A DNA stretch of 64,000 nucleotides from sequence record NZ_CP118944.1. The stretch is one strand, 5' to 3'. The number at the start of each line of letters is the position of its first letter. Positions within the stretch are counted from its first letter, which is position 1. This DNA is from a plasmid. This document shows, one piece after another, positions 3,368-64,000 of the stretch. A program made the translations under genes and the position numbers. The notes beneath the pieces were generated by a model. The model was not told the DNA's origin, ran no database searches, and was given only the letters and a program-made list of their open reading frames with translations.

Positions 3368-6205
3368 TCCGAGCGGCGAAACATGGGCCAAGAGATCGGG
3401 CGATAGCAGCTTTCCATCGCGTTTCTGGTTTGCAACGACCTCGCCGAGCTTCATGGTGTTCCAGAAGATGATGATGGCGGCGAGCAGATTCATGCCGGCG
3501 ATGCGGTAATGCTGGCCTTCGGCGGAACGGTCGCGGATTTCACCGCGGCGGTGGAAGCTGATTGCCCGCTTCAGCGCATGATGAGCTTCGCCTTTGTTGA
3601 GCCCGATCTGGGCACGCCGTTGGAGTTCGGCATCCAGAATCCAGTCGATCATGAACAGGGTGCGCTCGACGCGACCGACTTCCCGCAGGGCTGTCGCGAG
3701 CTCGTTCTGCCGCGGATAGGAGGCGAGTTTCCGCAGAATCTGGCTTGGCGCGACGGTCCCGGCAGCAATGGTGGCGGCGATGCGCAGGATGTCGGGCCAA
3801 TTGCGCTCGATCATGGCTTGGTTGACCTTTCCGCCGATCAACGCTCGCAGGTGCGCCGGGGCGGCCGACGGATTGAACGCGTAGAGCCGTTTGGATGGCA
3901 GGTCGCGGATGCGCGGAGCGAACCGGTAGCCGAGAATGGCACATGCGGCAAAGACGTGATCGGTGAAGCCGCCCGTGTCGGTGAACTGCTCGCGGATATG
4001 GCGTCCAGCATCGTTCATCAGCAGGCCATCGAGGATGTAAGGCGCTTCGCTTGCCGTTGCAGGAATCACCTGGGTTGCGAACGGCGCATATTGGTCGGAG
4101 ACGTGGCTATAGGCTTTCAGGCCCGGGGTATTGCCATATTTCGCGTTGACCAGGTTCATGGCCTCACCTTGCTCTGTAGCGACGAAGAACTGTCCGTCGC
4201 TCGAAGCCGACGTGCCCATGCCCCAGAACCGGGCCATGGGTAACGCTGCCTGTGCCTCGACCACCATGGCCAGCGCCCGGTCATAGGCTTCGCCCTCGAC
4301 ATGCCACCGTCCAATGCGGATCAATTCCCAGAAGGTGTGGGTGTTTGTCGCATCCGCCATTTTGCGCAAGCCGAGGTTGATCCCTTCCGCCAAGATAACG
4401 TTCATTAGCCCGATCCGGTCAGCGCAGGGTGCTCCTGTGCGCAGATGGGTGAACGCTTCGGTGAAGCCGGTCGCCGCATCCACCTCCAGCAGGAGATCGG
4501 TGATGCGCGTGGGCGGGATCTGCTTGTAGAGATCGAGCACCAGATCTTCGGCGCCTGTCGGCGCGGCGGCTTCGAGTTTCTCGATATGCAGAACGCCGTT
4601 TTCAATCGACCCGCCCGGGATCGTGCCTGCGCGAGCGGCACGGCCAAGCTCGCGCAACCGCATGTCGAGGCGAGCTTGCCGGTCTGCCAGCCATTCCTCC
4701 GGCCGCAATGGCACAGCGAGACGACCGCCTTCCGCGATGGATTGTGCCGGAACGAGTGCGTGTTTCAGATCGCCATAGCGCCGGGACCTAGTAAGCCAGA
4801 CATCTCCGGAGCGGAACGCATCGCGCAGATGGAACAGCACCGCGATCTCCCATAGGCGAGCGTCGCCAGCCCTCTGGGCCCGAAGGTGGCGATGCCATTT
4901 CGAGCTGGGCCGCAAGAAGCTGGTCATCGCGGCATCGTTCAAACCGGTACGAAGGGCCGTCACCGCTTCCAGAAGCGGCAGTGCAACGGGCGCAGCTCGC
5001 AGATCGAGCAGGCGCAACATGCGTGGAGCGTATCGGCGGAAGCGGTGATAACCGTCGAGCACATGATTGAGCGGATCGTCGGCCATGGTGGCGGTCAGCC
5101 TGGTTGCCATTGCAACAAGGGTTTTTAAGCCGTCCCACCCTGACCCACTCGCGATGACATCGCCCAGCGGCTGGCCATCATCCTGTGCATCGACCAGGGC
5201 GCCCCCGATCTCGGCGAAGGATTTCAGGGTGTCACGCACCACCCCCGCTTCGTCTGCGACCTTTGCATGGCAAATACGCTCCGAAGCACGGTAGAGACGG
5301 CCGACGATCCGGTCGTGGGTTTCGACCACTGCGTCGGCCAACATCGTCTGCCATTCCGAGACGCAAACAGCCAAGATCGCAAGCCGCCTGTCCTCCGGGA
5401 GATCGCGCATGCCGTCGGCATAATACCGTTCACCCTGCCTGCGCAGACGAGTCACCCGATGGGCAGGAACGCCGGCAAGCAGATCCTCGGGGAGATCGAT
5501 GCGTTGCAGATATTCGAGCCGGTCGAGCAGCCGGTTGGCCGACGAAGAGTTCGAGCCAGGCTCGAACTGGCGCAGCCACACAAAACGGGTCACCCGATCA
5601 TCAGCCGTCTCCTCGAGCAATGCCAGCAACTGTTCTCGGATCGACATAGGCAGCCGACTGGCGATCCTCGTCTCGATGCGTCGCTCGGCATCGACGAGAG
5701 CCGCGGCACAAAGCCGCTCGATCGTGGATGTCGCGGGAAGGACAGTGCGGGTGCGTCGGCACTCGGCTACGAAGCGACGGGCGATATCCTCGTTCGACAC
5801 CGCCATCTCGGCTTCTCGGAACAACCATTCCTTCAGCTCGCTCGCACCACGTCCGGAGAAGGTGCGGAAGCCGTAGAGCCCCCGTAACTCGGCAAGATGC
5901 TCGTGCCGTGTTTCCTCGCGGGCAGCATAGTCTACGAGATCGTCGGCACCCAGGCCAAGCTGCGCTCCGATAAATTCGATGACCTCTGCAGGGATCAGTT
6001 CGCCTGGAGCCAGCACCCGGCCGGGATAGCGCAGGACACACAATTGCAGGGCGAAGCCGAACCTGTTGTGAGCGCGCCGACGCAGCCTGATATGCCCAAG
6101 GTCTTCATCACTCAGCGTATAGTGCTTGAGCAAATCCGTCTGTGAAGTCGGCAAGCGCAACAGCGCGTCTTTCTGCCGATCGGTTAGAGTGACGCGACGC
6201 GGCAT
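3320..6205 (-). CDS. tnpA: Tn3-family transposase TnpA (Tn5393)
   Basis: 961 aa with Tn3-family TnpA architecture. C-terminus lies inside the terminal inverted repeat, as is typical. Confidence 0.9.
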   Translation of the reverse strand: MPRRVTLTDRQKDALLRLPTSQTDLLKHYTLSDEDLGHIRLRRRAHNRFGFALQLCVLRYPGRVLAPGELIPAEVIEFIGAQLGLGADDLVDYAAREETRHEHLAELRGLYGFRTFSGRGASELKEWLFREAEMAVSNEDIARRFVAECRRTRTVLPATSTIERLCAAALVDAERRIETRIASRLPMSIREQLLALLEETADDRVTRFVWLRQFEPGSNSSSANRLLDRLEYLQRIDLPEDLLAGVPAHRVTRLRRQGERYYADGMRDLPEDRRLAILAVCVSEWQTMLADAVVETHDRIVGRLYRASERICHAKVADEAGVVRDTLKSFAEIGGALVDAQDDGQPLGDVIASGSGWDGLKTLVAMATRLTATMADDPLNHVLDGYHRFRRYAPRMLRLLDLRAAPVALPLLEAVTALRTGLNDAAMTSFLRPSSKWHRHLRAQRAGDARLWEIAVLFHLRDAFRSGDVWLTRSRRYGDLKHALVPAQSIAEGGRLAVPLRPEEWLADRQARLDMRLRELGRAARAGTIPGGSIENGVLHIEKLEAAAPTGAEDLVLDLYKQIPPTRITDLLLEVDAATGFTEAFTHLRTGAPCADRIGLMNVILAEGINLGLRKMADATNTHTFWELIRIGRWHVEGEAYDRALAMVVEAQAALPMARFWGMGTSASSDGQFFVATEQGEAMNLVNAKYGNTPGLKAYSHVSDQYAPFATQVIPATASEAPYILDGLLMNDAGRHIREQFTDTGGFTDHVFAACAILGYRFAPRIRDLPSKRLYAFNPSAAPAHLRALIGGKVNQAMIERNWPDILRIAATIAAGTVAPSQILRKLASYPRQNELATALREVGRVERTLFMIDWILDAELQRRAQIGLNKGEAHHALKRAISFHRRGEIRDRSAEGQHYRIAGMNLLAAIIIFWNTMKLGEVVANQKRDGKLLSPDLLAHVSPLGWEHINLTGEYRWPKP

Positions 6206-6330: not shown

Positions 6331-6945
6331 ATGCTGATCGGATATGCCCGCGTCTCCAAAGCCGATGGCTCGCAGTCTCTCGACCTGCAGCACGACGCCT
6401 TGCGCGCCGCAGGTGTCGAACGGGACAATATCTATGATGATCTTGCTTCCGGCGGTCGTGATGATCGCCCTGGCTTGACTGCCTGCCTCAAGTCATTGCG
6501 TGACGGCGATGTGCTGGTGGTCTGGAAGCTCGATCGCCTCGGACGATCGCTTGCCCATCTGGTCAACACGGTGAAGGAGCTGTCAGACCGCAAGATCGGC
6601 CTGCGGGTTCTGACTGGAAAGGGCGCTCAGATCGACACCACGACTGCGTCCGGTCGCATGGTGTTCGGAATCTTCGCCACCTTGGCCGAGTTCGAGCGGG
6701 ATCTGATCCGAGAGCGCACCATGGCGGGTCTCGCCTCCGCGAGAGCGCGCGGTCGCAAGGGCGGACGAAAATTCGCGCTCACCAAAGCTCAGGTGCGTCT
6801 CGCGCAAGCCGCCATGGCCCAGCGCGATACTTCAGTTTCCGATCTCTGCAAGGAACTCGGCATCGAGCGCGTCACTCTCTACCGATATGTCGGTCCCAAA
6901 GGCGAGCTCAGAGACCATGGAAAGCATGTTCTCGGACTTACGTAG
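6331..6945 (+). CDS. tnpR: serine resolvase TnpR (Tn5393)
   Basis: 204 aa. N-terminus MLIGYARVSKADGSQSLDLQ with catalytic Ser in the YARVS motif. C-terminal HTH present. Confidence 0.9.
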   Translation: MLIGYARVSKADGSQSLDLQHDALRAAGVERDNIYDDLASGGRDDRPGLTACLKSLRDGDVLVVWKLDRLGRSLAHLVNTVKELSDRKIGLRVLTGKGAQIDTTTASGRMVFGIFATLAEFERDLIRERTMAGLASARARGRKGGRKFALTKAQVRLAQAAMAQRDTSVSDLCKELGIERVTLYRYVGPKGELRDHGKHVLGLT

Positions 6946-12489: not shown

Positions 12490-13647
12490 AATAGCTGTTC
12501 CGAATAGTAGATCACCGGAGGAAGGGAACTCAGTCCAGTTTGTGCGATCTGATTAGTCGCTAAACAAAACAAGCCACACCCAAAGGACTGAGTTGATGCC
12601 TATCCTACCACCTCTGCCACGACCACAACGGCGCCGCATTCACAAAATCATCCATGCCACCCGTGATAAAGGACATGCTCGTCGCTTGATGGCCATCTTG
12701 CTGTTACATGAAGGACGCACGATCACCGATGTTCATCACCTTACCGGCGCTGCGCGCTCGACCATCGGTCGTTGGCTTCGGTGGTATCGAGATGAAGGCA
12801 TAGATGCGCTAGAAGCCTTACCGGCTGGCCGTGCCCCAGTCTTACCTATCGCCAAGATTGTCACCCTACTGGTGCTGCTCATGCAGTTTTCTCCGCAAGA
12901 TTTTGGTTATCAGCGCAGCCGTTGGTGTACTGAACTATTGGCTATAAAAATCAATCGGTTAACAGGGCTCAATGTGGCAGCCTCCACGCTCCGCCGATGG
13001 TTACCTCGTATGGGCATTGTCTGGCGCAGGCCCGTGCCGACCTTGCGGATAAAAGACCCAGCCTATCAGGAAAAAATGGCGAATATCGACGCCGCGCTGG
13101 CCCGCTGTGATGCCGATAATCCGGTGTTTTATGAGGATGAAGTCGATATAGACCTCAATCCCAAATTAGGAGCCGACTGGATGTTCAGAGCGCAGCAAAA
13201 GCGGGTTGTCACACCGGGGCAGAATGCCAAGCATTATCTGGCAGGCGTTCTCCACGCAGGCAACGGAAGGGTACTTTACGTCAGCGGGATCAAGAAAAAC
13301 TCATCGCTGTTTATTGCCATGCTGGAAAAGCTGCGCCACCACTACCGACGAGCCAAAACCATCACGTTGATCCTCGATAACTACATCATTCACAAAAGCA
13401 AACAGACCGAGCGATGGTTGAAGAAGAATCCCAAGTTCTGCCTGGTGTTCCAGCCAGTTTACAGCCCTTGGGTTAATCACATAGAACGGCTATGGCACAA
13501 GTTACATGAAACCATCACGCGCAATCATCAATGCAGAGGGATGGCAAACCTGCTGGCCCGAGTGAAACACTTCATGGATACCGTGTCTCCTTTCCCGGGG
13601 AATGGCTATGGCACAGCGAAGGTGTAGCACTATTGGGATCAGTTATT
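12490..13647 (+). mobile_element. IS630-family insertion sequence, copy A (1158 bp), inside mod
   Basis: Terminal inverted repeats AATAGCTGTTCCGAATAGTAG / rc AATAACTGATCCCAATAGTGC. Flanked by TA (12488-12489 and 13648-13649), the hallmark IS630 TA target duplication. Matches the second copy at 35201-36358. Confidence 0.8.
12593..13627 (+). CDS. IS630-family transposase (344 aa)
   Basis: Identical in translation to ORF 35304..36338. N-terminal HTH region (GARSTIGRWLRWYRDEG). DDE-type C-terminus typical of the IS630/Tc1 family. Confidence 0.85.
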   Translation: MMPILPPLPRPQRRRIHKIIHATRDKGHARRLMAILLLHEGRTITDVHHLTGAARSTIGRWLRWYRDEGIDALEALPAGRAPVLPIAKIVTLLVLLMQFSPQDFGYQRSRWCTELLAIKINRLTGLNVAASTLRRWLPRMGIVWRRPVPTLRIKDPAYQEKMANIDAALARCDADNPVFYEDEVDIDLNPKLGADWMFRAQQKRVVTPGQNAKHYLAGVLHAGNGRVLYVSGIKKNSSLFIAMLEKLRHHYRRAKTITLILDNYIIHKSKQTERWLKKNPKFCLVFQPVYSPWVNHIERLWHKLHETITRNHQCRGMANLLARVKHFMDTVSPFPGNGYGTAKV

Positions 13648-26917: not shown

Positions 26918-26990
26918 CTGCCGCGCTATCGCTTGCCTGCTGGCTTGTTCGTCGCAGCGAAACGATGCCGCGCCTCAAAGCCCAGCCGCT
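26918..26990 (+). repeat. ~70-bp REP-like intergenic repeat, copy 1
   Basis: ccgcgctatcgcttgcctgctggcttgttcgtcgcagcgaaacgatgccgcgcctcaaagcccag. Near-identical copies at 30028-30090 (rc) and 55038-55108. Confidence 0.45.
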
Positions 26991-30652: not shown

Positions 30653-31077
30653 TGGGCATGACCGCAAGCGGTCGCGCTGTCATGCTGCGCATCGAGTCGG
30701 CGAACTGATGCCGTCTCGACCCTTCGGGTTTCCATCGCTCATGCCTACGCCTCTGCGAGGCTGCGCGCTCCGCTTGCCGCACCCGTGGCCAGCTCCATCG
30801 CGATGTCTTGCCCCTCTAAGCCCTTCACCGCCAGTCAATCTACACGCCCGGTCGTTGTGACCAGTGTTCGCGCTGCCGCCCTCCTCACCCGTTCGCACTC
30901 TCTTCGTTCGCTTGCGCTGCGGCTTGCGGGGGCGCACTGGTCTCGCCTCCCTTGGTGCGTGTTGATTTCCCTCTTCGCGGCGAAGAACTCAGAGAGGCAA
31001 ATCAAATCAAGCAACGCAGTAAAGAGCCACGGGCGCTGAACACCTAGAGCGCAGCTCAGAATCTAGAGACGCAAATG
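30653..31077 (+). repeat. ~425-bp direct repeat, copy 1 (candidate leading-region single-strand promoter/Frpo-like element)
   Basis: gggcatgaccgcaagcggtcgcgctgtcatgc...gcgctgaacacctagagcgcagctcagaatctagagacgcaaatgg. Copy 2 at 34808-35200 + 36359-36390 is ~85-90% identical by eye. Lies immediately upstream of the 31114 gene. Confidence 0.6.
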
Positions 31078-31113
31078 GGCTCAACCCCCAACACACCATC
31101 AGGAGAGGCAATC

Positions 31114-33171
31114 ATGAGTGCAACCATCATCACCATGGAAGAGTTCAAAACAGCAGCACAACAAGCCGAGCTGGCCGCCCGGTTTGTCCGCCGCCCGGTG
31201 TCTGTGCAGGTGCTCTGGTCCGAGTCTGACGCATGGGAGGCAGATCAGCTCCTCAGTTTTGGCGAGTTTGAAGCCCAGGCGCTGGCCGTGGCCATGGCTC
31301 ACGCCGCTGGCGGGTATCTCAAAACCAAAATCACGGTCACCTTTGATGATGGTAAAACCTACACGGCCCGCATTGACCTGGCTGCAGGCGATGAGCTCTG
31401 CTTTGCCCATCACTGCGCGGCCATGCTGCGCCATTACGAGACCGCCGAGGGCCGCGAATATTACGGCAGCATGGGGCCGGATGCGCTCGCATTGATCGAG
31501 TTTGTCCAGGGCGTGGATTTTGGCCGCGCCGGTCAGCTTATCGATGAGATGGAACAAACCGCCGCACTCGCCGTTACGCTGGCCAAAGAACAAGCCGCCG
31601 CACAGGCTGCCGCCAATGAGCAAGCCGCGAAGCAGGCGTTTAACGCTGACATTGAGCGTCTCGCCAGTGCCCAGGAATACGCCCATTTGACCCGGATTGG
31701 TCGGGCTGGCGCGAAAGAGGTGGCCAAAAACATTCGCGCCGACCTGAAAAAGGCATGGCCTGCCGTGAAATTTTCCGTGCGCTGCGAGCGTGGCGGCTGG
31801 TCTTCGAGTGTGCGCGTGAGTTGGACGGATGGCCCCACCGTGGCAGAGGTTGACGCTCTGGTTAACCGTTACGAGGGCGGGCGTTTCAATGGCATGACCG
31901 ATTGTTACGAGCACAATGCCAGCCCGTTTAACGAGGTGTTTGGTTACGTTGATTACCTTTTTACCTCCCGTGACCGCTCTCCCGCACTGGATACCCTGGC
32001 TAAGGCCGTGATCTTGCAGGAAACCGGTGTGGCGGTCACCAGAGATGAAAACCAGCTCATCGAGGGGGAATTTGCCCTGACCCTGATGCACCGCGCTTGC
32101 TATCGCATTGGCATCACTCACACCGGGTACCAGCTGGATGGTCAGCCATGGACACCTGCCAGCGAGTCGGAACAGCCAGACATGGCCCCCGTTACCCAGC
32201 TGCAGCCCGCCAGCATTGAGCCCAAGCCCACATTTCGTGCCCATCGCGTGGCCGATGGCTGGACGGTGTCGATCTCGCAGGGCGACCAGCTTCACCGCTT
32301 TGAGGGGCTCCAGGCGCACAGCTTTGCCGAGGCTTGCCGCGTGGCCTGGGCATTGCTGATGCAGACCACCCCACCGGATGATGATCCCGACGGTGGTCAA
32401 CCGCTGCCGGTGGCGCCGGTCGCCGAGCCGGTCAATCAGACCATGCAGGGGGGCGAGGCCCCCACTCCTACCCGTGCCGCGCTGCTGGGTGACTATCAGG
32501 GCCGTGTCGAAGCAAAGCGCGAGCGCCTCGAGGGGCGAGCAGGAAAGGCCCAAGACGAAAGCGCTGGCCGTCATGCCGCCGTGCGTTCCATCCTCAGCTG
32601 GATTGTGCCGGGTCAGCCGATCCTGGTGGGCCACCATAGTGAATGGCGACACCGTCGCGATCTGGCCCGGGTCGATCACCACATGGGGCAGGCGGTTGCA
32701 TTGGCCAGGAAAGCCGAGCACCTGGCGCAACGCGCCGAAGCGGTCGGCCAGGGCGGGATCGCCAGCGATGATCCCGACGCGCTGGCGCAGCTGCAAGGCA
32801 AGTTGGCCAAGCAGGAAGCCAGGCAACAAGCTATGAAGGACGCCAACAGGGCAAAGCGCAGCACTTACCAGGCATGGCAGCTCAGTAACAACGGGGCGGA
32901 GATCCGCCGCTTGCGCCAACGTATCGAGCAGCTAAGGGCGTTGCACAGCGCTGCACCGATCGAGCAGGCAGGGCAGGGCTGGCGCATGTTCGAGGATGAT
33001 GGGCGCATTCAGATCCATTTTGACGGCAAGCCCGCCGCAGCGTTGCGCCAGCTGTGCAAGGGGGCCGGGTTCGTCTGGTCGCCCAGCCGCTGCGCCTGGG
33101 TGCGCAAAGTGACCGCCCGAGCCGTCCGGGAGGCCCGTCGATTGGCTGGCGCATTGCCTGCAGAGGATTAA
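31114..33171 (+). CDS. large leading-region protein (685 aa), polyvalent/DUF3560-like C-terminus (GHHSE motif), function unknown, candidate anti-defence
   Basis: Start at internal Met MSATIITMEEF, with AGGAGAGG 5 nt upstream. Ala/Gln linker AAAQAAANEQAAKQA. Motif FSVRCERGGWSSSVRVSWTDGPT. C-terminal ILVGHHSEWRHRRD. The antisense 606-aa ORF was rejected. Confidence 0.55.
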   Translation: MSATIITMEEFKTAAQQAELAARFVRRPVSVQVLWSESDAWEADQLLSFGEFEAQALAVAMAHAAGGYLKTKITVTFDDGKTYTARIDLAAGDELCFAHHCAAMLRHYETAEGREYYGSMGPDALALIEFVQGVDFGRAGQLIDEMEQTAALAVTLAKEQAAAQAAANEQAAKQAFNADIERLASAQEYAHLTRIGRAGAKEVAKNIRADLKKAWPAVKFSVRCERGGWSSSVRVSWTDGPTVAEVDALVNRYEGGRFNGMTDCYEHNASPFNEVFGYVDYLFTSRDRSPALDTLAKAVILQETGVAVTRDENQLIEGEFALTLMHRACYRIGITHTGYQLDGQPWTPASESEQPDMAPVTQLQPASIEPKPTFRAHRVADGWTVSISQGDQLHRFEGLQAHSFAEACRVAWALLMQTTPPDDDPDGGQPLPVAPVAEPVNQTMQGGEAPTPTRAALLGDYQGRVEAKRERLEGRAGKAQDESAGRHAAVRSILSWIVPGQPILVGHHSEWRHRRDLARVDHHMGQAVALARKAEHLAQRAEAVGQGGIASDDPDALAQLQGKLAKQEARQQAMKDANRAKRSTYQAWQLSNNGAEIRRLRQRIEQLRALHSAAPIEQAGQGWRMFEDDGRIQIHFDGKPAAALRQLCKGAGFVWSPSRCAWVRKVTARAVREARRLAGALPAED

Positions 33172-33568
33172 CCCCTGTGCCTTCTCATCAGCCCCGGCTT
33201 GCTGGGGCTTTCCCCTATAGACAAGGCTGGGCGCTCGCGCCCGCTCTTTGTTGCTGCCGGGTGACTACCGTTGGTTCTGCCCCCTGGTGCCTCCTGGCAC
33301 GTTGTGGGGATAACCGTTTCTGAATAGAAGTGCAAAGCCCTGCCCCGAAAACCCTGCTGCCCTCTGCCATCGTGCAATGCCCCGCATTGCGGGACGCAAA
33401 CAGCCTTCAAGCGGCTTTCGCGGCATATCCTCGCCGCGAAAAGCATACGGCTGCGGTATTCCACGTCCGCTTGACCCGCTGCGATGCATTGCGTGTTGGC
33501 CTCGGGCAGCAGGGAATGGCAACCATCCCGGAGACCTCCTGCCGCCCTTCTATGACGAGGCCAATACC

Positions 33569-34213
33569 ATGTCACGATTCATGTTGGGTGATAGCGTTCA
33601 GATCATGTCTACGTTTCCAGATGCTGCAGTGGACTTCATTTTGACCGATCCGCCGTACCTGGTCGGATTTAAAGACCGCTCCGGGCGATCGATTGCCAAT
33701 GACGTTAATGATGAATGGGTGCTGCCTGCCTTTACGCAGATGTATCGGGTGTTAAAGCCCCACTCGCTGGCGGTGAGTTTCTACGGCTGGAACCGGGTCG
33801 ATACCTTTATGGCCGCCTGGAAGCAGGCCGGGTTTCGGGTTGTCGGTCATCTGGTGTTCACCAAGTCCTATGCGTCCAAAGCGGCCTTTGTCGGCTATCG
33901 CCATGAATGCGCTTACCTGCTCGCCAAAGGCCGTCCCCAGGTGCCCGCGCAGCCGTTGCCGGATGTGATGCCCTGGGCCTACTCAGGTAATCGACACCAT
34001 CCCACCGAGAAGCCGGTGAGCGCGTTGCAGCCCCTGATAGAGTCATTTACCCGTCCGGGTGACATTGTGCTCGACCCGTTCGCAGGCTCCGGCTCTACGT
34101 GTGTGGCGGCGGCCAAGTGTGGGCGGCGCTATATAGGGATCGAGTTGCTGCCGCATTATCACCAGGCAGGGTTAAACCGACTGAATCTGGCCAATGGACT
34201 GCGGGCCGCATAG
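33569..34213 (+). CDS. orphan N6-adenine/N4-cytosine-type DNA methyltransferase (YhdJ/Dam-like beta-class)
   Basis: Start at MSRFMLGDSVQIMSTFPDAAVDFILTDPPY (motif IV DPPY). Later ...HPTEKPVSALQPLIESFTRPGDIVLDPFAGSGST (motif I FxGxG). No adjacent restriction gene. Confidence 0.75.
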   Translation: MSRFMLGDSVQIMSTFPDAAVDFILTDPPYLVGFKDRSGRSIANDVNDEWVLPAFTQMYRVLKPHSLAVSFYGWNRVDTFMAAWKQAGFRVVGHLVFTKSYASKAAFVGYRHECAYLLAKGRPQVPAQPLPDVMPWAYSGNRHHPTEKPVSALQPLIESFTRPGDIVLDPFAGSGSTCVAAAKCGRRYIGIELLPHYHQAGLNRLNLANGLRAA

Positions 34214-34227
34214 GGGAGGGGAAGAAG

Positions 34228-34467
34228 ATGCGAGAACTTGAAACACGGTTAGGCGACATGGCAAAGCAAGCCCTTGAACTGCTCAAGACCATGGAGGCGG
34301 TCAGAATGGAGGCCAACGAGGCAAGGTTGGCAGGGACAGGCGTCGAGCCCGTTGAGCGGTTGTTGCTCCACCTGATCATCGAGGAAGAGGGGGCCGTGCG
34401 GTCGGTAGCGAGAAATCTGGCAACCTGGCAGCACTTGACCTGTCATCAACCCGAGTCAGTCGAATGA
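34228..34467 (+). CDS. small hypothetical protein (79 aa)
   Basis: Internal Met MRELETRLGDMAKQALELLKTMEAVRMEANE with GGGGAGGGGAAGAAG upstream. The longer ORF-track form overlaps the MTase 3' end. Confidence 0.35.
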   Translation: MRELETRLGDMAKQALELLKTMEAVRMEANEARLAGTGVEPVERLLLHLIIEEEGAVRSVARNLATWQHLTCHQPESVE

Positions 34468-34600
34468 CATCGATTTACCCAAGCCTCAGCCTTCGGCTGC
34501 GGCTTGGCCGCCTTACAGGCGGTTAGGCTCCGGGGGCTGTTCCTTCAATATCACTTTTTAAGCCTGGTGCTTGCTCGATGGTGTGACCGGGTGAATCATC

Positions 34601-34755
34601 CTGGTCTGCTGGGTCTGCTGGGTCTGCTGGGTCTGCTGGGTCTGCTGGGTCTGCTGGGTCTGCTGGGTCTGCTGGGTCTGCTGGGTCTGCTGGGTCTGCT
34701 GGGTCTGCTGGGTCTGCTGGGTCTGCTGGGTCTGCTGGGTCTGCTGGGTCTGCTC
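34601..34755. repeat. tandem repeat, 9-bp unit CTGGGTCTG x ~17
   Basis: cctggtctg ctgggtctg ... read directly. Three overlapping ORFs (LLGLLG/PADPAD/QTQQTQ) are repeat artefacts. Confidence 0.85.
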
Positions 34756-35200
34756 TCCCCTTATCAATCAAATGCCGTTTTTGATGGTTCAATTTTACAA
34801 AATGACTTGGGCATGACCGCGAGCGGTCGCGCTGTCATGCTTCGCATCGAGTCAGCGAAAAGATGCTGTCTCGCCCCTTCGGGTTTCCATCGCTCATGCC
34901 TACGCCTCTGCGAGGCTGCGCGCTCCGCTTGCCGCACCCATGGCCAGCTTCATCGCTCTGCCTTGCCCCTCTAAGCCCTTCACCGCCAGGCAAATTAACA
35001 CGCCGGTCGCCGCTGCCAGTGTTCGCTTCGCCATCTCCTCACCCGTTCGCACTCTCTTCGTTCGCTTGCGCTGCGGCTTGCGGGGATGCACAGGCATCGT
35101 CTCCCTTGTCGCGTGTTGTTTCCCTTTCTTGCGGCGAAGAACTCAGAGAGGCAAATCAAATCAAGCAACGCAGTAAAGAGCCACGGGCGCTGAAAACCTA

Positions 35201-36358
35201 AATAGCTGTTCCGAATAGTAGATCACCGGAGGAAGGGAACTCAGTCCAGTTTGTGCGATCTGATTAGTCGCTAAACAAAACAAGCCACACCCAAAGGACT
35301 GAGTTGATGCCTATCCTACCACCTCTGCCACGACCACAACGGCGCCGCATTCACAAAATCATCCATGCCACCCGTGATAAAGGACATGCTCGTCGCTTGA
35401 TGGCCATCTTGCTGTTACATGAAGGACGCACGATCACCGATGTTCATCACCTTACCGGCGCTGCGCGCTCGACCATCGGTCGTTGGCTTCGGTGGTATCG
35501 AGATGAAGGCATAGATGCGCTAGAAGCCTTACCGGCTGGCCGTGCCCCAGTCTTACCTATCGCCAAGATTGTCACCCTACTGGTGCTGCTCATGCAGTTT
35601 TCTCCGCAAGATTTTGGTTATCAGCGCAGCCGTTGGTGTACTGAACTATTGGCTATAAAAATCAATCGGTTAACAGGGCTCAATGTGGCAGCCTCCACGC
35701 TCCGCCGATGGTTACCTCGTATGGGCATTGTCTGGCGCAGGCCCGTGCCGACCTTGCGGATAAAAGACCCAGCCTATCAGGAAAAAATGGCGAATATCGA
35801 CGCCGCGCTGGCCCGCTGTGATGCCGATAATCCGGTGTTTTATGAGGATGAAGTCGATATAGACCTCAATCCCAAATTAGGAGCCGACTGGATGTTCAGA
35901 GCGCAGCAAAAGCGGGTTGTCACACCGGGGCAGAATGCCAAGCATTATCTGGCAGGCGTTCTCCACGCAGGCAACGGAAGGGTACTTTACGTCAGCGGGA
36001 TCAAGAAAAACTCATCGCTGTTTATTGCCATGCTGGAAAAGCTGCGCCACCACTACCGACGAGCCAAAACCATCACGTTGATCCTCGATAACTACATCAT
36101 TCACAAAAGCAAACAGACCGAGCGATGGTTGAAGAAGAATCCCAAGTTCTGCCTGGTGTTCCAGCCAGTTTACAGCCCTTGGGTTAATCACATAGAACGG
36201 CTATGGCACAAGTTACATGAAACCATCACGCGCAATCATCAATGCAGAGGGATGGCAAACCTGCTGGCCCGAGTGAAACACTTCATGGATACCGTGTCTC
36301 CTTTCCCGGGGAATGGCTATGGCACAGCGAAGGTGTAGCACTATTGGGATCAGTTATT
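35201..36358 (+). mobile_element. IS630-family insertion sequence, copy B (identical to copy A)
   Basis: Same terminal inverted repeats and transposase ORF as copy A. TA at 35199-35200 and 36359-36360. Confidence 0.8.
35304..36338 (+). CDS. IS630-family transposase (344 aa), copy B
   Basis: Identical translation to 12593..13627. Confidence 0.85.
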   Translation: MMPILPPLPRPQRRRIHKIIHATRDKGHARRLMAILLLHEGRTITDVHHLTGAARSTIGRWLRWYRDEGIDALEALPAGRAPVLPIAKIVTLLVLLMQFSPQDFGYQRSRWCTELLAIKINRLTGLNVAASTLRRWLPRMGIVWRRPVPTLRIKDPAYQEKMANIDAALARCDADNPVFYEDEVDIDLNPKLGADWMFRAQQKRVVTPGQNAKHYLAGVLHAGNGRVLYVSGIKKNSSLFIAMLEKLRHHYRRAKTITLILDNYIIHKSKQTERWLKKNPKFCLVFQPVYSPWVNHIERLWHKLHETITRNHQCRGMANLLARVKHFMDTVSPFPGNGYGTAKV

Positions 36359-36411
36359 TAGAGCGCAGCTCAGAATCTAGAAAGGCAAATGGCAAAAACA
36401 AGGGGCAAATA

Positions 36412-36693
36412 ATGGGCACAAGAAATATTCAGACCGGTTTTTATGCTTTGCAGTTTGGCAGTTGGCAAAGTTTTGAGGAAGCCGTTAGATGTGGGGCTGA
36501 CTATTTGATTATGGATGGTATATCAATCAATGACAGTTCATCTATTAGCATGGTAATTGATTCGTTATGGATGGCAGAGGCATTAATAAAAGCAATTGGT
36601 GCTAAAGATGATTGGAAAATCATTTATTGGGATGGTTCACGCGTTTTTGAGAGCGACGAAATTGTAAATATATACAACGAGCTAATGGCATAA
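36412..36693 (+). CDS. small leading-region protein (93 aa), hypothetical
   Basis: Start at MGTRNIQTGFYALQFGSWQ, 22 bp after the repeat copy 2 end. Low GC. Confidence 0.4.
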   Translation: MGTRNIQTGFYALQFGSWQSFEEAVRCGADYLIMDGISINDSSSISMVIDSLWMAEALIKAIGAKDDWKIIYWDGSRVFESDEIVNIYNELMA

Positions 36694-36716
36694 ATCCAGC
36701 GCTGGGGTAATCAATT

Positions 36717-37079
36717 ATGAATGAATATGATATTCAGTCTCTCATTTACATCTGCATCAGTATTGATAATAACGTGCGCATGTTACGCGGTAAGCAAATC
36801 GCGGGAATTATTCACAGCGGCGGATATGAAATGTGTGAAGGTTGCCCCGGTGGCATGGTTGAAACAACCTATTGGGCAATGAATGATGCGTTTCCCATCC
36901 TCAAGGAATTAGCAGAAAAGACCCATATCGAAATGGTTGGCACACCGTGGCTTTATGAGGTGTGCGAGGAGTATGGAACCGCCATTATTGATTATGTCAA
37001 AGAGTCTGGCAGATGGCCGACAAATGAAGAATTAATTGTGCTCGCAGGTAAGGCGATTGCGGCGGCGCAGTGGCATTAA
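36717..37079 (+). CDS. small leading-region protein (120 aa), hypothetical
   Basis: ORF-track ORF. Cys cluster CEGCPGG. Low GC. Confidence 0.45.
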   Translation: MNEYDIQSLIYICISIDNNVRMLRGKQIAGIIHSGGYEMCEGCPGGMVETTYWAMNDAFPILKELAEKTHIEMVGTPWLYEVCEEYGTAIIDYVKESGRWPTNEELIVLAGKAIAAAQWH

Positions 37080-37148
37080 AATTCAGGCAACAAAAACCAT
37101 CAATGTATAACGGTCTGGGAGTGGCCCAGACCTAACAAGGGGTGATGT

Positions 37149-37553
37149 ATGGATACTTTAATTGCTGGTCTGGTTATTGATTCTAAACGTATGGACATGA
37201 TGCCTAAATACTTCGGACGCTGGATGATGAAAACTGAAGGTAACATTTATGGCTGGATGAAAGAAATCTGCGCATCGTACAGCGGCGGTTATTGGGATAT
37301 GTGGGAGGTATCGAATGGTGCGTTCTTTATGGTCCCCCCTTTGAAAAAAGAAGGTTACACGCTATCAATTAATGGTAATGGTTTTGAGGGGGTGTTGACT
37401 GCCCACGCTACCGGTGTTGTGGCTTGTCTTTTTGCATACTATTACATGTGGGAAATGACAGACGATGATCTCTTTGTAAGACTCTATCACGCACTTCGTG
37501 AATATGCATTGACGTTAGAAGAGCATAGTTTGATTTTTAGCGCATTAGATTAA
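37149..37553 (+). CDS. klcA: KlcA/ArdB-family antirestriction protein
   Basis: MMPKYFGRWMMKTEGNIYGWMKEICASYSGGYWDMWEVSNGAFFMVPP...INGNGFEGVLTAHATGVVACLFAYYYM... aligns motif-for-motif with RK2 KlcA (YFGPRLMM...YNGAYWHYY...NGNGF...AAGIVATLFAL). Confidence 0.75.
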   Translation: MDTLIAGLVIDSKRMDMMPKYFGRWMMKTEGNIYGWMKEICASYSGGYWDMWEVSNGAFFMVPPLKKEGYTLSINGNGFEGVLTAHATGVVACLFAYYYMWEMTDDDLFVRLYHALREYALTLEEHSLIFSALD

Positions 37554-38035: not shown

Positions 38036-38711
38036 CGCATCCCCCTTAAACAAGGCAACCAGTTTGCCAGTAAATGAGATGGCGAGCAAATGAACAATAG
38101 GCATTTTCCCCTTTATCACCGGAAAGGGTAACGAGCAAATTGCACGGCGAACTGATGCCGTACAATTCCCCCGTCCCCCTTTCCTGACATCTCGCCACGC
38201 AATAGGAAAAGACAACCTTGTTTCCTCTGGAAAAACAACCCGCAAAGGATAACTCGCCAATTTTACGGCGAACTGATGCCGAAAAATTCCCTCGTCACCC
38301 TCTGCGGTCATATACCGAGTCAACCAAAGCACGATATTTATAGATAGCCTACTCATCAACCATAAGACTCCACACCCGTAGCAAATCTGCGATTTGCAGA
38401 TAAATCATTTAAAATCATCAGATTAAGCTAACTCTTACGGTGTTATTTAGCGTTTTGGACACAAAACAACAGTGCAAGCACCGTGCTAGCACCGACAAAG
38501 CACGGCGCTGCTAGCGGTGCAAAAGCATATATCAATAATATCAATGAATTATGAGCTGCACGGTGGATGCGCTGCCAACGTAAATGCTTGGGCTCCAAGA
38601 AAGCTGCGCAGCTACATGGCGGCGTATGCACGGCTATCCTTTAGAGTCCCTAGCGGTGCATGCACGGTCATGGTACATTGTGATGTTGCTATTTTAAATA
38701 GAGGTTAGCAA
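38036..38711. promoter_or_regulatory. oriT region of the F-like transfer system (between the geneX-like LT and traM)
   Basis: Position as in F. ~40-bp direct repeats at 38121-38160 and 38243-38281 share the 17-mer ACGGCGAACTGATGCCG. Imperfect inverted repeat gcaccgtgctagc...gctagcggtgc at 38478-38520. A 10-bp palindrome GTGCATGCAC at 38656-38665 lies just upstream of traM. The nic site is not identified. Confidence 0.45.
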
Positions 38712-57644: not shown

Positions 57645-58631
57645 TTACAAAAATACGCAGTTGCGTTTGCGCCACATCAGATAGCCGAAGTTCTTTCGGT
57701 CATTGGGCATGTTGTGGCCGGTGCCCCACAGGGTGGTGGTTTTGCCAAAGGGGTGGCAGGCCGCCACGTCCGGGTGGACGTTGACCATCTGATAACGCCA
57801 GCGCTCTTTGGGCACGATGGCCGAGGGGTATTCAAAACAGACGGCGCGATCCTTGCCGACAGAGTTCATGATCATGCCCTGGCGGTGGAGCTTGGCTGCC
57901 ATCCGCTCGGAGAGCAGGATGGAGGACTGCATAGGGCTGAATTCGTTGCTGACGTAGCCGGTGAAGGGATACATGGAGCCGTGCGCGCCGGCACACCAAA
58001 AGAGCGCGTCGATGGGCTTGCCAAAGGCACTGGCCATGGCATCAGCAGCGCAGGCCCCCTGGGCAATCACGTTGTTAAACAGCATGGCCTCGGGGCTCAA
58101 AATGAGCGCGATAGATGAGTCATTCCAGGTGGGATCAAGCTCGGAGAGGTAACCGATATCCATGTCGCCGCCCTGCAGGCAGCCCATGGAGGTGATGATG
58201 TTGAGCCAGTAGGTCAGCGGGTATTTGTACCAGTGAACGTGATAAAACGCGCCCGCGACATCCTTGTCACTCTGTCCAGCTGTCCCGGTGCCTACTTTGC
58301 CAATCCCCAGACTGATCCCGCCCATATTGACCAGGCAATAGGGGGCACGGGTCACATCGGTGAGCGCCATCGGCTCCCAATACCCGATAGCGAGGCCTAC
58401 GCGATACAAGATCCCCATTGGGCAGATCTGGATAGGCATGGACGGATTGCTGGTATCCGGCGCGGGGCCAGACATGAGGGCGACGCTACCAATCGAGATG
58501 GGGAACAGGCATTCCCAACAGACGTCGGTAATAGGGTTCACAAAGTTGCCCTGGCACTCGGCATCGGCTGCACCCGCAGAGGGCGAGAGCAAGGCGGCGC
58601 ACAGCATGATGGCAAGCAGGGGGTGTTTCAT
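57645..58631 (-). CDS. traU: F-type pilus assembly protein TraU
   Basis: 328 aa, compared with F TraU 330. Signal peptide. Conserved Cys pattern. Confidence 0.8.
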   Translation of the reverse strand: MKHPLLAIMLCAALLSPSAGAADAECQGNFVNPITDVCWECLFPISIGSVALMSGPAPDTSNPSMPIQICPMGILYRVGLAIGYWEPMALTDVTRAPYCLVNMGGISLGIGKVGTGTAGQSDKDVAGAFYHVHWYKYPLTYWLNIITSMGCLQGGDMDIGYLSELDPTWNDSSIALILSPEAMLFNNVIAQGACAADAMASAFGKPIDALFWCAGAHGSMYPFTGYVSNEFSPMQSSILLSERMAAKLHRQGMIMNSVGKDRAVCFEYPSAIVPKERWRYQMVNVHPDVAACHPFGKTTTLWGTGHNMPNDRKNFGYLMWRKRNCVFL

Positions 58632-62841: not shown

Positions 62842-64000
62842 TGATGGAGTGGGGGGTCAACGAGATCGCCCACTTTCATGTCTTTGAATGAACGGGCGAC
62901 ACTGGGATCGGCTAATACATCGTCCTGTTGTGGCACCGGCGCTTTATTGGCTTTTTTGAGTGCGGCCTCGGCGATGGTTTCGAGCTGGAACCCGTCTTGA
63001 AACACCATCGTGACTTCATTGCCCGCACCAATCGGGATGATGGGGTGGTACTGCTCGGCGCGTTTGATGTAGTAGTCAGAGAGGGTTTTGGCCGCCTGTC
63101 CCGCGCCGCCGCCTATGCCTGCTTTGGCTATGTCGCCGCCGTTCATGGTCGCGGTAGCCCCGATACCCACTTGCGGACTGGCTGATTTTTCGATGCCCTT
63201 ACCCACGCCATCAATGAAGCCTGCCCCCCAGGCCCAGCCCAGGATCTGGCCGTTACGCATAATGACCTCGCCCTTGATGCCGTTTTTTCCCATGAACGAG
63301 ACGTGACCGGCGATCTTCTGGTCGATCACGTCGTTGCTCTTTTTACAGCTGATCCCGCGTGTGCGGACGATGGCCCGCTCACTGGAGACATCCCCCCACG
63401 CTTCCAGGGTGACAAAACAGCCGGTCAGGTCGTATTCGTGATCGTTTGGCATTTGCACTTTGCCAGTCAGGCGTAGTTGCATCGGGGAGGTGTTCTGCTG
63501 CCCGGTGACGGCGGCGTTGGTATCTGCCCCCTCAATGACAACCGCCTTGGCAAATGATCCGGACGGAATGTAGGGGTACCTGGGGGCCTGGCTGGGCTGG
63601 TCATCGTCATAACTGAACGTGGTGGAATCGATGGCATTGACCGGCTGCACCGGGGCCATTGGTTGAATGGTCATTTGCCCTGGCTGGACGTTACCCATGC
63701 CGGGATAAAAGGCGGTTGGCGGCGGGATGTCGCCGTTGGCCATTTGCGCCGGATTTACCGAGCTGGGGGCGGGTTCGCCAGTGGGGGCCTGTAGCGAGGG
63801 GCCGGAGGCGGTGGCGGCTTTGAGCTCCTTGTTTTCGGCTTCCAGTGAGGCCAGACGCTCCTGATCATTTTTGCGCTCACGGGACATCATGGCCATTTCT
63901 GTGCGCATGGTGGCCAGCTCCTGGCGCACTTCCTTGTTGATGAGCTGAAACTCGGTGACAGCCGACTGCTGTACCTTGTCATCAAATTGGGCATTGACGA
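62838..64000 (-). CDS. traB: TraB (VirB10-like), C-terminal part; gene continues beyond window end
   Basis: The frame stays open from 63929 to 64000 (no stop). The ORF-track start is an internal GTG. Pro/Gln-rich linker then conserved C-terminal domain. traV overlaps by 4 bp. Confidence 0.6.
   Translation of the reverse strand, partial: VNAQFDDKVQQSAVTEFQLINKEVRQELATMRTEMAMMSRERKNDQERLASLEAENKELKAATASGPSLQAPTGEPAPSSVNPAQMANGDIPPPTAFYPGMGNVQPGQMTIQPMAPVQPVNAIDSTTFSYDDDQPSQAPRYPYIPSGSFAKAVVIEGADTNAAVTGQQNTSPMQLRLTGKVQMPNDHEYDLTGCFVTLEAWGDVSSERAIVRTRGISCKKSNDVIDQKIAGHVSFMGKNGIKGEVIMRNGQILGWAWGAGFIDGVGKGIEKSASPQVGIGATATMNGGDIAKAGIGGGAGQAAKTLSDYYIKRAEQYHPIIPIGAGNEVTMVFQDGFQLETIAEAALKKANKAPVPQQDDVLADPSVARSFKDMKVGDLVDPPLHQ

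Follow-up and report, generated by a model that had tools for sequence, protein, structure and literature searches.

Why does one plasmid carry the same ~425-bp sequence twice in its leading region, each time directly ahead of a gene cluster that points towards oriT, the transfer origin? This question is posed by positions 30,653 to 36,411 of a 64,000-nt stretch of record NZ_CP118944.1 (hereafter the window), which comes from a plasmid of Aeromonas salmonicida that is F-like (MOBF, MPF_F) and a relative of pAsa5. A preliminary description of the window had proposed that both repeats are Frpo/ssi-like promoters operating on the transferred single strand. Whether a newly entered plasmid expresses its anti-restriction, anti-SOS and methylase genes during its first minutes in the cell is decided by single-strand promoters, and those of class 1, Frpo and ssi, were reportedly described by Masai and Arai in 1997. 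Class 1 comprises Frpo and ssi1–3 (Couturier 2023, PMC9849209), and for classes 1–3 Wen et al. (NAR 2025, PMC12672017) give mapped start sites and early induction in transconjugants; according to the papers considered here, single-strand promoters have been tested experimentally only in F and IncI1 plasmids (ColIb-P9, pESBL). Here, we consider it probable that each repeat is a two-part cis-acting leading-region cassette, the right part of which is a single-strand promoter on the transferred strand. Sequence comparison supports these hairpins as additional members of the already described class 2/3 family, and the left part, a structured module that we term R1, appears to be undescribed and more novel than the promoters.

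A repeat search of the window confirms the two direct repeats, 88–89% identical and both upstream of rightward leading-region gene clusters. The matching segments are 30653–30871 with 34808–35026 (89% identity), 30881–31062 with 35035–35216 (88%) and 31045–31078 with 36359–36392 (94%, repeat family D6), which together define copy 1 as 30653–31078 and copy 2 as 34808–35200 plus 36359–36392. Copy 1 indeed extends to the ribosome-binding site (RBS) of the 685-aa gene, and copy 2 ends ~20 nt before its cluster, close to the 22 bp given previously. Each repeat is composite, with the right ~260 nt forming a long hairpin and the left 95 nt, R1, forming a separate module (Table 1). The earlier view of the whole repeat as a promoter thus holds for the right ~260 nt, but not for the left quarter, which lies outside the promoter hairpin.

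The strand that serves as template is set by the nic region. An F-type nic motif is present on the minus strand, and its position and strand relative to the SLT gene (−) and traM (+) are the same as in F, where the counterpart, TTTGCGTGGGGTGT-bar-GGTGCTTT, is located between the SLT gene and traM (locus L004, 16171) and is the established nick site of TraI. Transfer therefore proceeds with the minus strand, which is also the template for both clusters, in agreement with the preliminary description. It enters 5′-first from 38371 leftward, the region left of 38371 going in first.

Judged by sequence comparison, the right-part hairpins are homologs of single-strand promoters of class 2/3, as carried by F and pESBL. 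A class 2/3 hidden Markov model (HMM) trained on five sequences (F, pESBL, Frpo*1, Frpo*3 and Frpo′4), none of them from Aeromonas, has only two matches in the 64-kb window (nhmmer), at 35096–34990 (E 4e-7) and 30937–30875 (E 5e-5), both on the minus strand, and copy 1 matches the pESBL class 3 region by blastn (E 3e-5). The Aeromonas, F and pESBL hairpins have in common, in a single register, the blocks CCCCG(C)AAGCCGCAGCGC and CGGGTGAGGAG, a −35-like box, a 16-nt spacer and TAnnnT. The blocks GAAGCCGCAGCGCAAG and GCGAACGGGTGAGGAG are shared by the Aeromonas hairpin and low-certainty Frpo* candidates (PMC11541004, Supplementary Table 2), and are also found upstream of the methylase operons of F (L004, ~2650–2850) and pESBL (locus L127, 3267–3409). 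These we take to be the M.EcoGIX promoter that Wen et al. 2025 assign to ‘class 3’, as no other sizeable co-oriented intergenic gap exists 5′ of the M.EcoGIX operon. Class 2, which is located upstream of klcA and ardA and includes F ssp2, is linked to class 3 via Frpo*1. The Frpo* and Frpo′ sequences are 400-nt upstream windows that were chosen by eye and not dissected (Samuel et al. 2024, PMC11541004); Supplementary Table 2 of that study contains no Aeromonas sequence, and R1 is not recognised there as a unit. The cargo provides a further parallel, since the copy 1 methyltransferase, with 72% identity over 205 aa (E 4e-117), is by sequence an ortholog of pESBL M.EcoGIX, and the copy 2 cluster includes a KlcA gene.

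The predicted promoter boxes fall into the register of the known family. In all members the 3′ arm comprises GGGTGAGGAG, ~18 nt, CTTGCA, 16 nt and a −10 element, which is TAACGT in F and pESBL class 3, TAAGAT in class 2 and TAAGGT or TACAGT in Frpo*1 and Frpo*3. In Aeromonas, CTGGTC or CTGGCA stands in the place of CTTGCA, and TAGATT, TAATTT or TAGTTT is the −10-like hexamer. The −35-like box of copy 1 lies 16 nt upstream of its −10-like box and aligns with CTTGCA of F and pESBL, whereas copy 2 has CTGGCA and TAATTT; in the fold of copy 1, the second base (A) of the −10-like box is located opposite an A·A mismatch. By comparison, class 1 shows no relationship to the hairpin: blastn finds no similarity to Frpo/ssi, and a class 1 HMM reaches at best E 0.7 in the window. 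Thus, of the original Frpo/ssi-like assignment, the idea of a single-strand promoter is supported, but the relatives are the class 2/3 elements described in 2025–26.

Folding distinguishes the two strands. The minus strand of copy 1 forms the stable long hairpin that had been anticipated, although without the sequence similarity to Frpo/ssi, at −60.4 kcal/mol (z-score −2.87, none of 200 shuffles as stable), compared with −46.7 kcal/mol (z-score −1.10) for the complementary plus strand. Copy 2 folds at −68.8 kcal/mol once the insertion sequence (IS) that interrupts it, ISAhy2, is removed, and in a 400-nt window at −74.7 (minus) versus −54.2 (plus). Across 14 Aeromonas-type elements, representing 11 distinct hairpins, the consensus fold of 86 pairs contains 825 Watson–Crick, 87 G·T and 4 A·C pair cells, with compensatory double changes at 11 pairs; the transferred strand is 10–23 kcal/mol more stable in each of the 11 variants, and the alifold score is −47.9 as against −23.1 for the other strand. 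The 87:4 ratio of G·T to A·C, together with the compensatory changes, shows that one strand is under selection for its single-stranded fold. It is for the transferred strand alone that the hairpin reaches significance and is conserved, and a duplex sigma-70 promoter was detected on neither strand of the repeat. The proposal of candidate single-strand promoters is supported by this strand specificity, by the match of the class 2/3 profile to exactly two sites, and by the boxes lying in register.

We infer ssDNA (single-stranded DNA) transcription, its start site and its timing from homology. When the transferred minus strand enters the recipient as ssDNA, the ~260-nt imperfect hairpin would form and its stem would rebuild a duplex promoter, in which strand polarity requires the 3′ arm to be the non-template strand for RNA polymerase to transcribe from the 5′ arm into the genes. 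The −35-like CTGGTC/CTGGCA, the 16-nt spacer and the −10-like TAGATT/TAATTT, with its mismatched second A, could then be used by host RNA polymerase, which would initiate within the 5′ arm (for copy 1, at ~30975) before complementary-strand synthesis and proceed rightward into the genes. The resulting early ‘zygotic’ burst would supply the LPD25/LPD29/DUF3560 protein and the M.EcoGIX-like methyltransferase from copy 1, and two small proteins and KlcA/ArdB from copy 2, until conversion of the hairpin to duplex DNA removes the promoter. The hairpin may also delay its own copying, by analogy with F ssp2, which stalls complementary-strand synthesis and is a conversion roadblock (Fraikin et al., bioRxiv 10.64898/2026.01.09.698686).

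Several observations weigh against this assignment. The significance of the hairpin as a single sequence is moderate (z-score ~−2.9, compared with −6.2 for F Frpo2), nearby GC-rich coding windows match it in raw folding energy, and the strand asymmetry is partly compositional, as the shuffle means of the two strands differ by ~6–9 kcal/mol. When sliding-window folding, as used by Wen et al., serves as a detector, strand asymmetry is what chiefly sets the repeats apart, and not raw energy, since the neighbouring coding DNA is GC-rich. Both boxes are imperfect, with 3–4 of 6 positions matching in the poor −35-like box and likewise in the −10-like box. The placement of the pESBL ‘class 3’ hairpin at L127 3076–3471 is our inference from the wording of the paper. 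In addition, the class 2/3 promoters of F and pESBL work without R1, and the strand signals of R1 conflict, with wobble counts favouring the plus strand, and energies and loop motifs the minus strand.

Table 1. Features of the two repeats and their surroundings, in window coordinates.
Feature	Position	Strand	Basis or remark
R1 module, copy 1	30653–30748	+ (covariance-model orientation)	R1 covariance model, 85.4 bits, E 5e-21
Linker: small hairpin GCCTC-TGC-GAGGC and conserved motif CTGCGCGCTCCGCTTGC	30749–30778		Sequence
Long imperfect hairpin, copy 1, candidate class 2/3 single-strand promoter	30776–31038	−	Fold, homology
−10-like hexamer TAGATT, copy 1, 3′ arm (non-template arm)	30837–30842	−	Shared register
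−35-like hexamer CTGGTC, copy 1 (or TGGTCA, 1-base shift)	30859–30864	−	Weak match
Right end of copy 1, 5′ leader with RBS AGGAGAGG	31039–31113	+	Repeat end 31078, ATG 31114
Polyvalent leading-region protein LPD25 + LPD29 + DUF3560, 685 aa	31114–33171	+	Pfam
Orphan N6/N4 DNA methyltransferase	33569–34213	+	Pfam N6_N4_Mtase
R1 module, copy 2	34808–34903	+ (covariance-model orientation)	R1 covariance model, 85.4 bits
Long transferred-strand hairpin, copy 2, intact	34931–35192	−	Fold, nhmmer
ISAhy2 (IS630 family), 1158 bp	35201–36358	+	Between hairpin base and RBS of copy 2
Right end of copy 2 (leader), displaced by ISAhy2	36359–36392	+	ATG 36412 follows ~20 nt on
Copy 2 cluster	36412–37553	+	Two small open reading frames and ArdB/KlcA-family antirestriction gene
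Two 72-nt direct repeats, 79% identical, leading side of nic	38119–38311		Hairpin in each
F-type nic region TTTGCTACGGGTGT-bar-GG (nick at bar)	38370–38385	−	Motif as in F

R1, the left part of the cassette, has a structure and a distribution of its own. Its 95 positions form a multi-helix fold, in which a closing stem H1 is followed by hairpin H2 and by stem H3, which encloses hairpins H4, H5/H6 and H7. When a hand-drawn structure was assessed on 49 sequences with 500 shuffles, 90.7% of the pair cells were standard, versus 35–48% with slid partners, 16 of the 30 pairs changed on both sides, and not one of the 500 shuffles reached the observed values. Within the motif pair GCT[N]T and TTC[N]ATC, the pairing is G-C in 42 cases, C-G in 25 and T-A in 19, with 4 exceptions, and between CG[S]GCT and ATC[S] it is G-C in 54 and C-G in 36, with no exception. 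The R1 structure is strongly supported by this covariation.

The covariance model, the orientation of which is that of the downstream genes, finds exactly two R1 copies in the window, two in F, and four and two in the two IncN plasmids, as well as 128 matches in 100 loci, often 2–3 per 8 kb in one orientation. By distant blastn, the complete repeat yields 776 plasmids, with full-length matches in Aeromonas plasmids only and short blocks in the others, whereas a query confined to the ~110 nt at the left finds at least 564 plasmids, 504 of which are predicted to be conjugative; among the hosts are Pseudomonas, Klebsiella, Burkholderia, Escherichia, Citrobacter and Xanthomonas. When one genome per species is scanned for the exact pattern, at least 120 loci are obtained, from Alpha-, Beta- and Gammaproteobacteria as well as a few further phyla. 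R1 is thus present in hundreds of conjugative plasmids, chromosomal loci resembling integrative and conjugative elements (ICEs) and the conserved upstream (CUP) repeats of IncN plasmids, and it lies beside F Frpo1 and Frpo2. In F, an IncN copy matches L004 8092–8173 (E 4e-8) and 13515–13575, R1 sites that are ~90 nt outside the Frpo2 and Frpo1 hairpins, respectively, and the presence of R1 in F makes its role directly testable. The F modules span L004 8091–8177 and 13479–13565 (F coordinates 58090–58176 and 63478–63564). The genes that follow R1 elsewhere are typical of leading regions, namely those for ArdC, ArdA, DUF932, DUF2958, RadC and ParB_N. A search of Rfam 15 with the 28–41 kb part of the window (E ≤ 1) produced only a chance TarA match elsewhere, eight other R1 loci gave no match (E ≤ 0.1), and a full-text literature search for the R1 core sequence returned nothing relevant, so that we did not find R1 described as a unit.

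Not every R1 copy precedes a promoter hairpin of a known kind. That R1 always stands ahead of a class 1 or class 2/3 hairpin was considered and rejected, as by sequence neither is seen at ~110 further R1 loci. In Pseudomonas, Polaromonas, Delftia and others, large chromosomal contigs hold arrays of 2–3 co-oriented R1 copies within 8 kb (loci with arrays include L046, L082, L028, L010 and L021); these are presumably ICE leading regions. No class 1 or class 2/3 hairpin is detectable by sequence in the chromosomal arrays, where further hairpin classes may follow R1. Simple repeats also occur next to R1: a perfect 9-bp tandem array (GGTCTGCTG, ~17 copies, 34603–34755; (CAGCAGACC)n on the transferred strand) adjoins R1 copy 2 on the left, a 33-bp tandem array lies 3′ of one IncN copy (locus L002, 5180–5575), and a CT-rich run lies 5′ of R1 at F Frpo2 (L004 8020–8075). 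Far from the leading region, a weak plus-strand R1 match at 1787–1892 (18.4 bits, E 0.03) could be a degenerate copy or chance.

The linker between R1 and the hairpin contains the conserved motif CTGCGCGCTCCGCTTGC, which follows R1 in many beta- and gammaproteobacterial copies, and in the transferred-strand fold part of it pairs with 31049–31059, thereby lengthening the hairpin base. The combination of R1 and hairpin recurs in Aeromonas relatives upstream of leading-region genes. In related Aeromonas plasmids it is also found upstream of a hyp-radC-exonuclease operon (L125, NZ_CP021658, pO23AP4, 3790–4087 and 6536–6827; L128, at 908 and 3058), which indicates that different leading-region operons share the cassette; the radC cluster of the present window is without it. 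A miniature inverted-repeat transposable element (MITE) or IS remnant, which the preliminary description had named as a possible confounder, was rejected, as there are no flanking inverted repeats and all copies precede leading-region genes and share their orientation.

In two IncN plasmids, R1 makes up the left end of leading-region CUP repeats of ~600 nt, which raises the alternative that the Aeromonas repeats are CUP-type duplex promoters or operators under an ArdK-like repressor, with early expression reflecting escape from repression. CUPs (IncN pKM101/R46; Delver & Belogurov 1997, as cited in PMC6289460 and PMC3490853) are reported to be ArdK binding sites (PMC6289460), and the H6 sequence recurs as an operator-like inverted repeat near oriT and at 26955. 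However, IncN CUPs end in a near-consensus promoter (TTGACT-17-TATACT), whereas both strands of the Aeromonas repeats lack a sigma-70-type promoter, and no ArdK or ArdR homolog is encoded in the 64-kb window. Moreover, the 87:4 bias of G·T over A·C and the compensatory changes in the hairpin would be needless for a duplex operator. We therefore regard regulation of the CUP type as unlikely.

Which strand of R1 folds bears on a second alternative, namely that R1, and possibly the hairpin too, acts as a sense RNA, be it a processing or stability element, an antiterminator or a small RNA. The R1 wobble cells favour the gene-sense strand (G·T 119 versus A·C 51), which would be G·U in RNA, and R1 always has the orientation of the downstream genes. 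Yet the largest G·T contributor, pair 70–98, shows no covariation, and in the well-anchored helices the counts are ~36 versus 24. Folding energies calculated with DNA parameters slightly favour the transferred strand, which is more stable in 97 of 115 R1 copies. Of the strand tests applied (wobble counts, energies and loop motifs), the loop motifs alone discriminated: on the sense strand, T-N-C triloops closed by C..G account for 26 of 47 cases in H2, 49 of 62 in H4 and 20 of 43 in H6 (47–79%), and G-N-A for only 3, 1 and 1, respectively, the triloops of these hairpins having been left free by the search pattern used to collect the copies. A sense-strand T-N-C triloop corresponds to C-GNA-G on the transferred strand, and d(C-GNA-G) is the classic extraordinarily stable DNA mini-hairpin; from the work of Hirao and Yoshizawa, it is said to be a stability motif specific to DNA. 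We thus lean towards R1 folding as transferred-strand DNA. Further points speak against an RNA: the repeat begins exactly at R1, with unrelated upstream sequence and no promoter, the mapped or predicted starts in F are downstream of R1, the sense strand gives a far less stable long hairpin, and Rfam contains no match. A role of R1 as RNA accordingly seems quite improbable.

Returning to the two-part cassette, R1 occupies the template just ahead of the promoter hairpin and would fold as a hyperstable DNA knot owing to its C-GNA-G mini-hairpin loops, which could insulate the hairpin from RNA or DNA polymerases coming from upstream. We put forward this insulator or roadblock role with low confidence, and every function proposed here for R1 is conjectural. 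A broader possibility, which we advance only tentatively, is that R1 represents an ancient, hitherto unrecognised class of structured ssDNA element in conjugative plasmids and ICEs of Alpha-, Beta- and Gammaproteobacteria, with a hyperstable multi-hairpin fold on the transferred strand ahead of unrelated promoter classes (Frpo, class-3-like, CUP), and serving as insulator, roadblock or loading site for a host factor; if so, R1 would help to set the length of the ‘zygotic’ expression window. That R1 or the whole repeat is instead, or in addition, a priming signal (ssi) of the G4 type or dependent on PriA is very unlikely, for although R1 groups its hairpins compactly on the transferred strand, to the 3′ side of the DNA that has to be copied, and Frpo was originally found as an ssi (F ssiD, listed in PMC11541004), the R1 model with filters off has no match at phage G4 3880–4000 (the best being elsewhere, E 0.3), R1 lies outside the published ssiD/Frpo sequences, and a priming site directly ahead would shorten the life of a single-strand promoter.

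Hairpin H6 of R1, which is variable within the R1 family, also occurs outside the repeats. In copy 1 it is formed by the 16-mer CGGCGAACTGATGCCG (30698–30713, CGGC-GAACTGAT-GCCG), which recurs near oriT at 38145 and 38266, and copy 2 carries a compensated variant (CAGCGAAAAGATGCTG; H6 is CAGC-GAAAAGAT-GCTG). The match to the oriT side had been noted previously as a 17-mer shared with ~40-bp repeats; it is real, but comprises a 16-mer within 72-nt repeats. Each of these repeats contains a hairpin, ACGGC-GAACTGAT-GCCG, identical to H6 of R1 copy 1 and located 60–250 nt from nic, and the 72-nt repeats are conserved in related Aeromonas plasmids. Overall, a hairpin of the form YRGC-GAAnnGAT-GCYR is present five times in one orientation across the leading region (26955, 30698, 34853, 38145 and 38266), a pattern kept in related Aeromonas plasmids. 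The 16-mer is absent near F oriT, and the link between H6 and oriT is thus specific to the Aeromonas plasmids. The recurrence of the sequence suggests that the H6-type hairpin is a candidate binding site for a plasmid-specific ligand or factor.

Copy 2 is interrupted, as described, by an IS630-family element at a TA. The element is 99.6–100% identical to annotated ISAhy2, has imperfect terminal inverted repeats and is flanked by TA on both sides (35199–35200 and 36359–36360); its transposase (35304–36338) contains DDE_3 and helix-turn-helix (HTH) domains (Pfam) and is in sense orientation. The insertion point is equivalent to 31046/31047 of copy 1, just beyond the hairpin base, such that the hairpin remains intact to the left of ISAhy2 and a short outer helix is lost. 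ISAhy2 thus displaces the small-protein/KlcA cluster from the promoter by 1158 bp, but does not split the promoter hairpin as the preliminary description had implied. The junction is absent from all PLSDB records, and in the closest relative (NZ_CP124843, 98%; locus L001) copy 2 is uninterrupted. We note that, with the sense transposase gene ~100 nt 3′ of an intact candidate single-strand promoter, transposase expression could be inducible on entry into a new host.

The surrounding genes are arranged in the order radC, a hypothetical gene, repeat 1, the polyvalent protein, the methyltransferase, repeat 2, two small open reading frames (ORFs), the ArdB/KlcA gene, SLT (−), the oriT region, traM (+) and traI (−). 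ATG 31114 is the likely start of the 685-aa gene, for which relatives annotate a DUF3560 protein, and the methyltransferase ORF, listed as 33377–34213, probably begins at 33569 according to the annotation of NZ_CP124843. The small ORFs (36412–36693 and 36717–37079) have no Pfam match, and the ArdB/KlcA gene (37149–37553) matches Antirestrict (PF03230, E 2e-21). The ~400-nt gap between the polyvalent gene and the methyltransferase (33172–33575) contains an inverted repeat (33352–33386/33480–33514) and folds on the transferred strand at −99.4 kcal/mol (z-score −4.66, none of 100 shuffles as stable), with a small strand asymmetry and no clearly visible −35 and −10 boxes; this gap may represent an additional single-strand promoter, or else a roadblock or terminator.

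The closest known counterparts of the Aeromonas hairpins are the class 2/3 promoters of F and pESBL, which are experimentally characterised, whereas the Aeromonas elements are known here from sequence and predicted folds. Both are long, GC-rich hairpins in the leading region with the transferred strand as template, and they share the blocks, the −35/16 nt/−10 register and the cargo types, M.EcoGIX ortholog and KlcA. The two can be aligned over the inner ~130 nt only; the Aeromonas hairpin has an extra outer stem of ~25 bp rich in G·T pairs, a predicted leader of ~135 nt compared with ~40 nt, and a more degenerate −35 box, and is preceded by R1, which is lacking at the F and pESBL class 2/3 promoters. 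With Frpo/ssi, the Aeromonas repeats share the envisaged mechanism and the arrangement, in which nearly identical copies, separated by a few kb, stand upstream of leading operons (the F Frpo copies are 92% identical), and on the transferred strand an R1 module lies ~90 nt 3′ of both F Frpo1 and Frpo2. Frpo nevertheless differs by the lack of detectable sequence similarity, an A+T-rich, UP-like tip and a folding z-score of −6.2. The IncN CUPs are likewise large direct repeats upstream of successive leading-region operons and prone to recombination between copies, and their left end is a homologous R1 module (75–84 bits); by contrast, they have a consensus duplex promoter and ArdK control, and the middle parts are unrelated. 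Among the insect-gut metagenome candidates (PMC11541004), Frpo*1 and Frpo*3 have the hairpin core in common with the Aeromonas element, and the 3′ end of Frpo*2 contains R1 on the transferred strand. The class 2/3 family is thereby extended to the F-like plasmids of Aeromonas, including relatives of the fish-pathogen plasmid pAsa5, and the comparison yields a signature of sequence and structure by which such promoters may be found.

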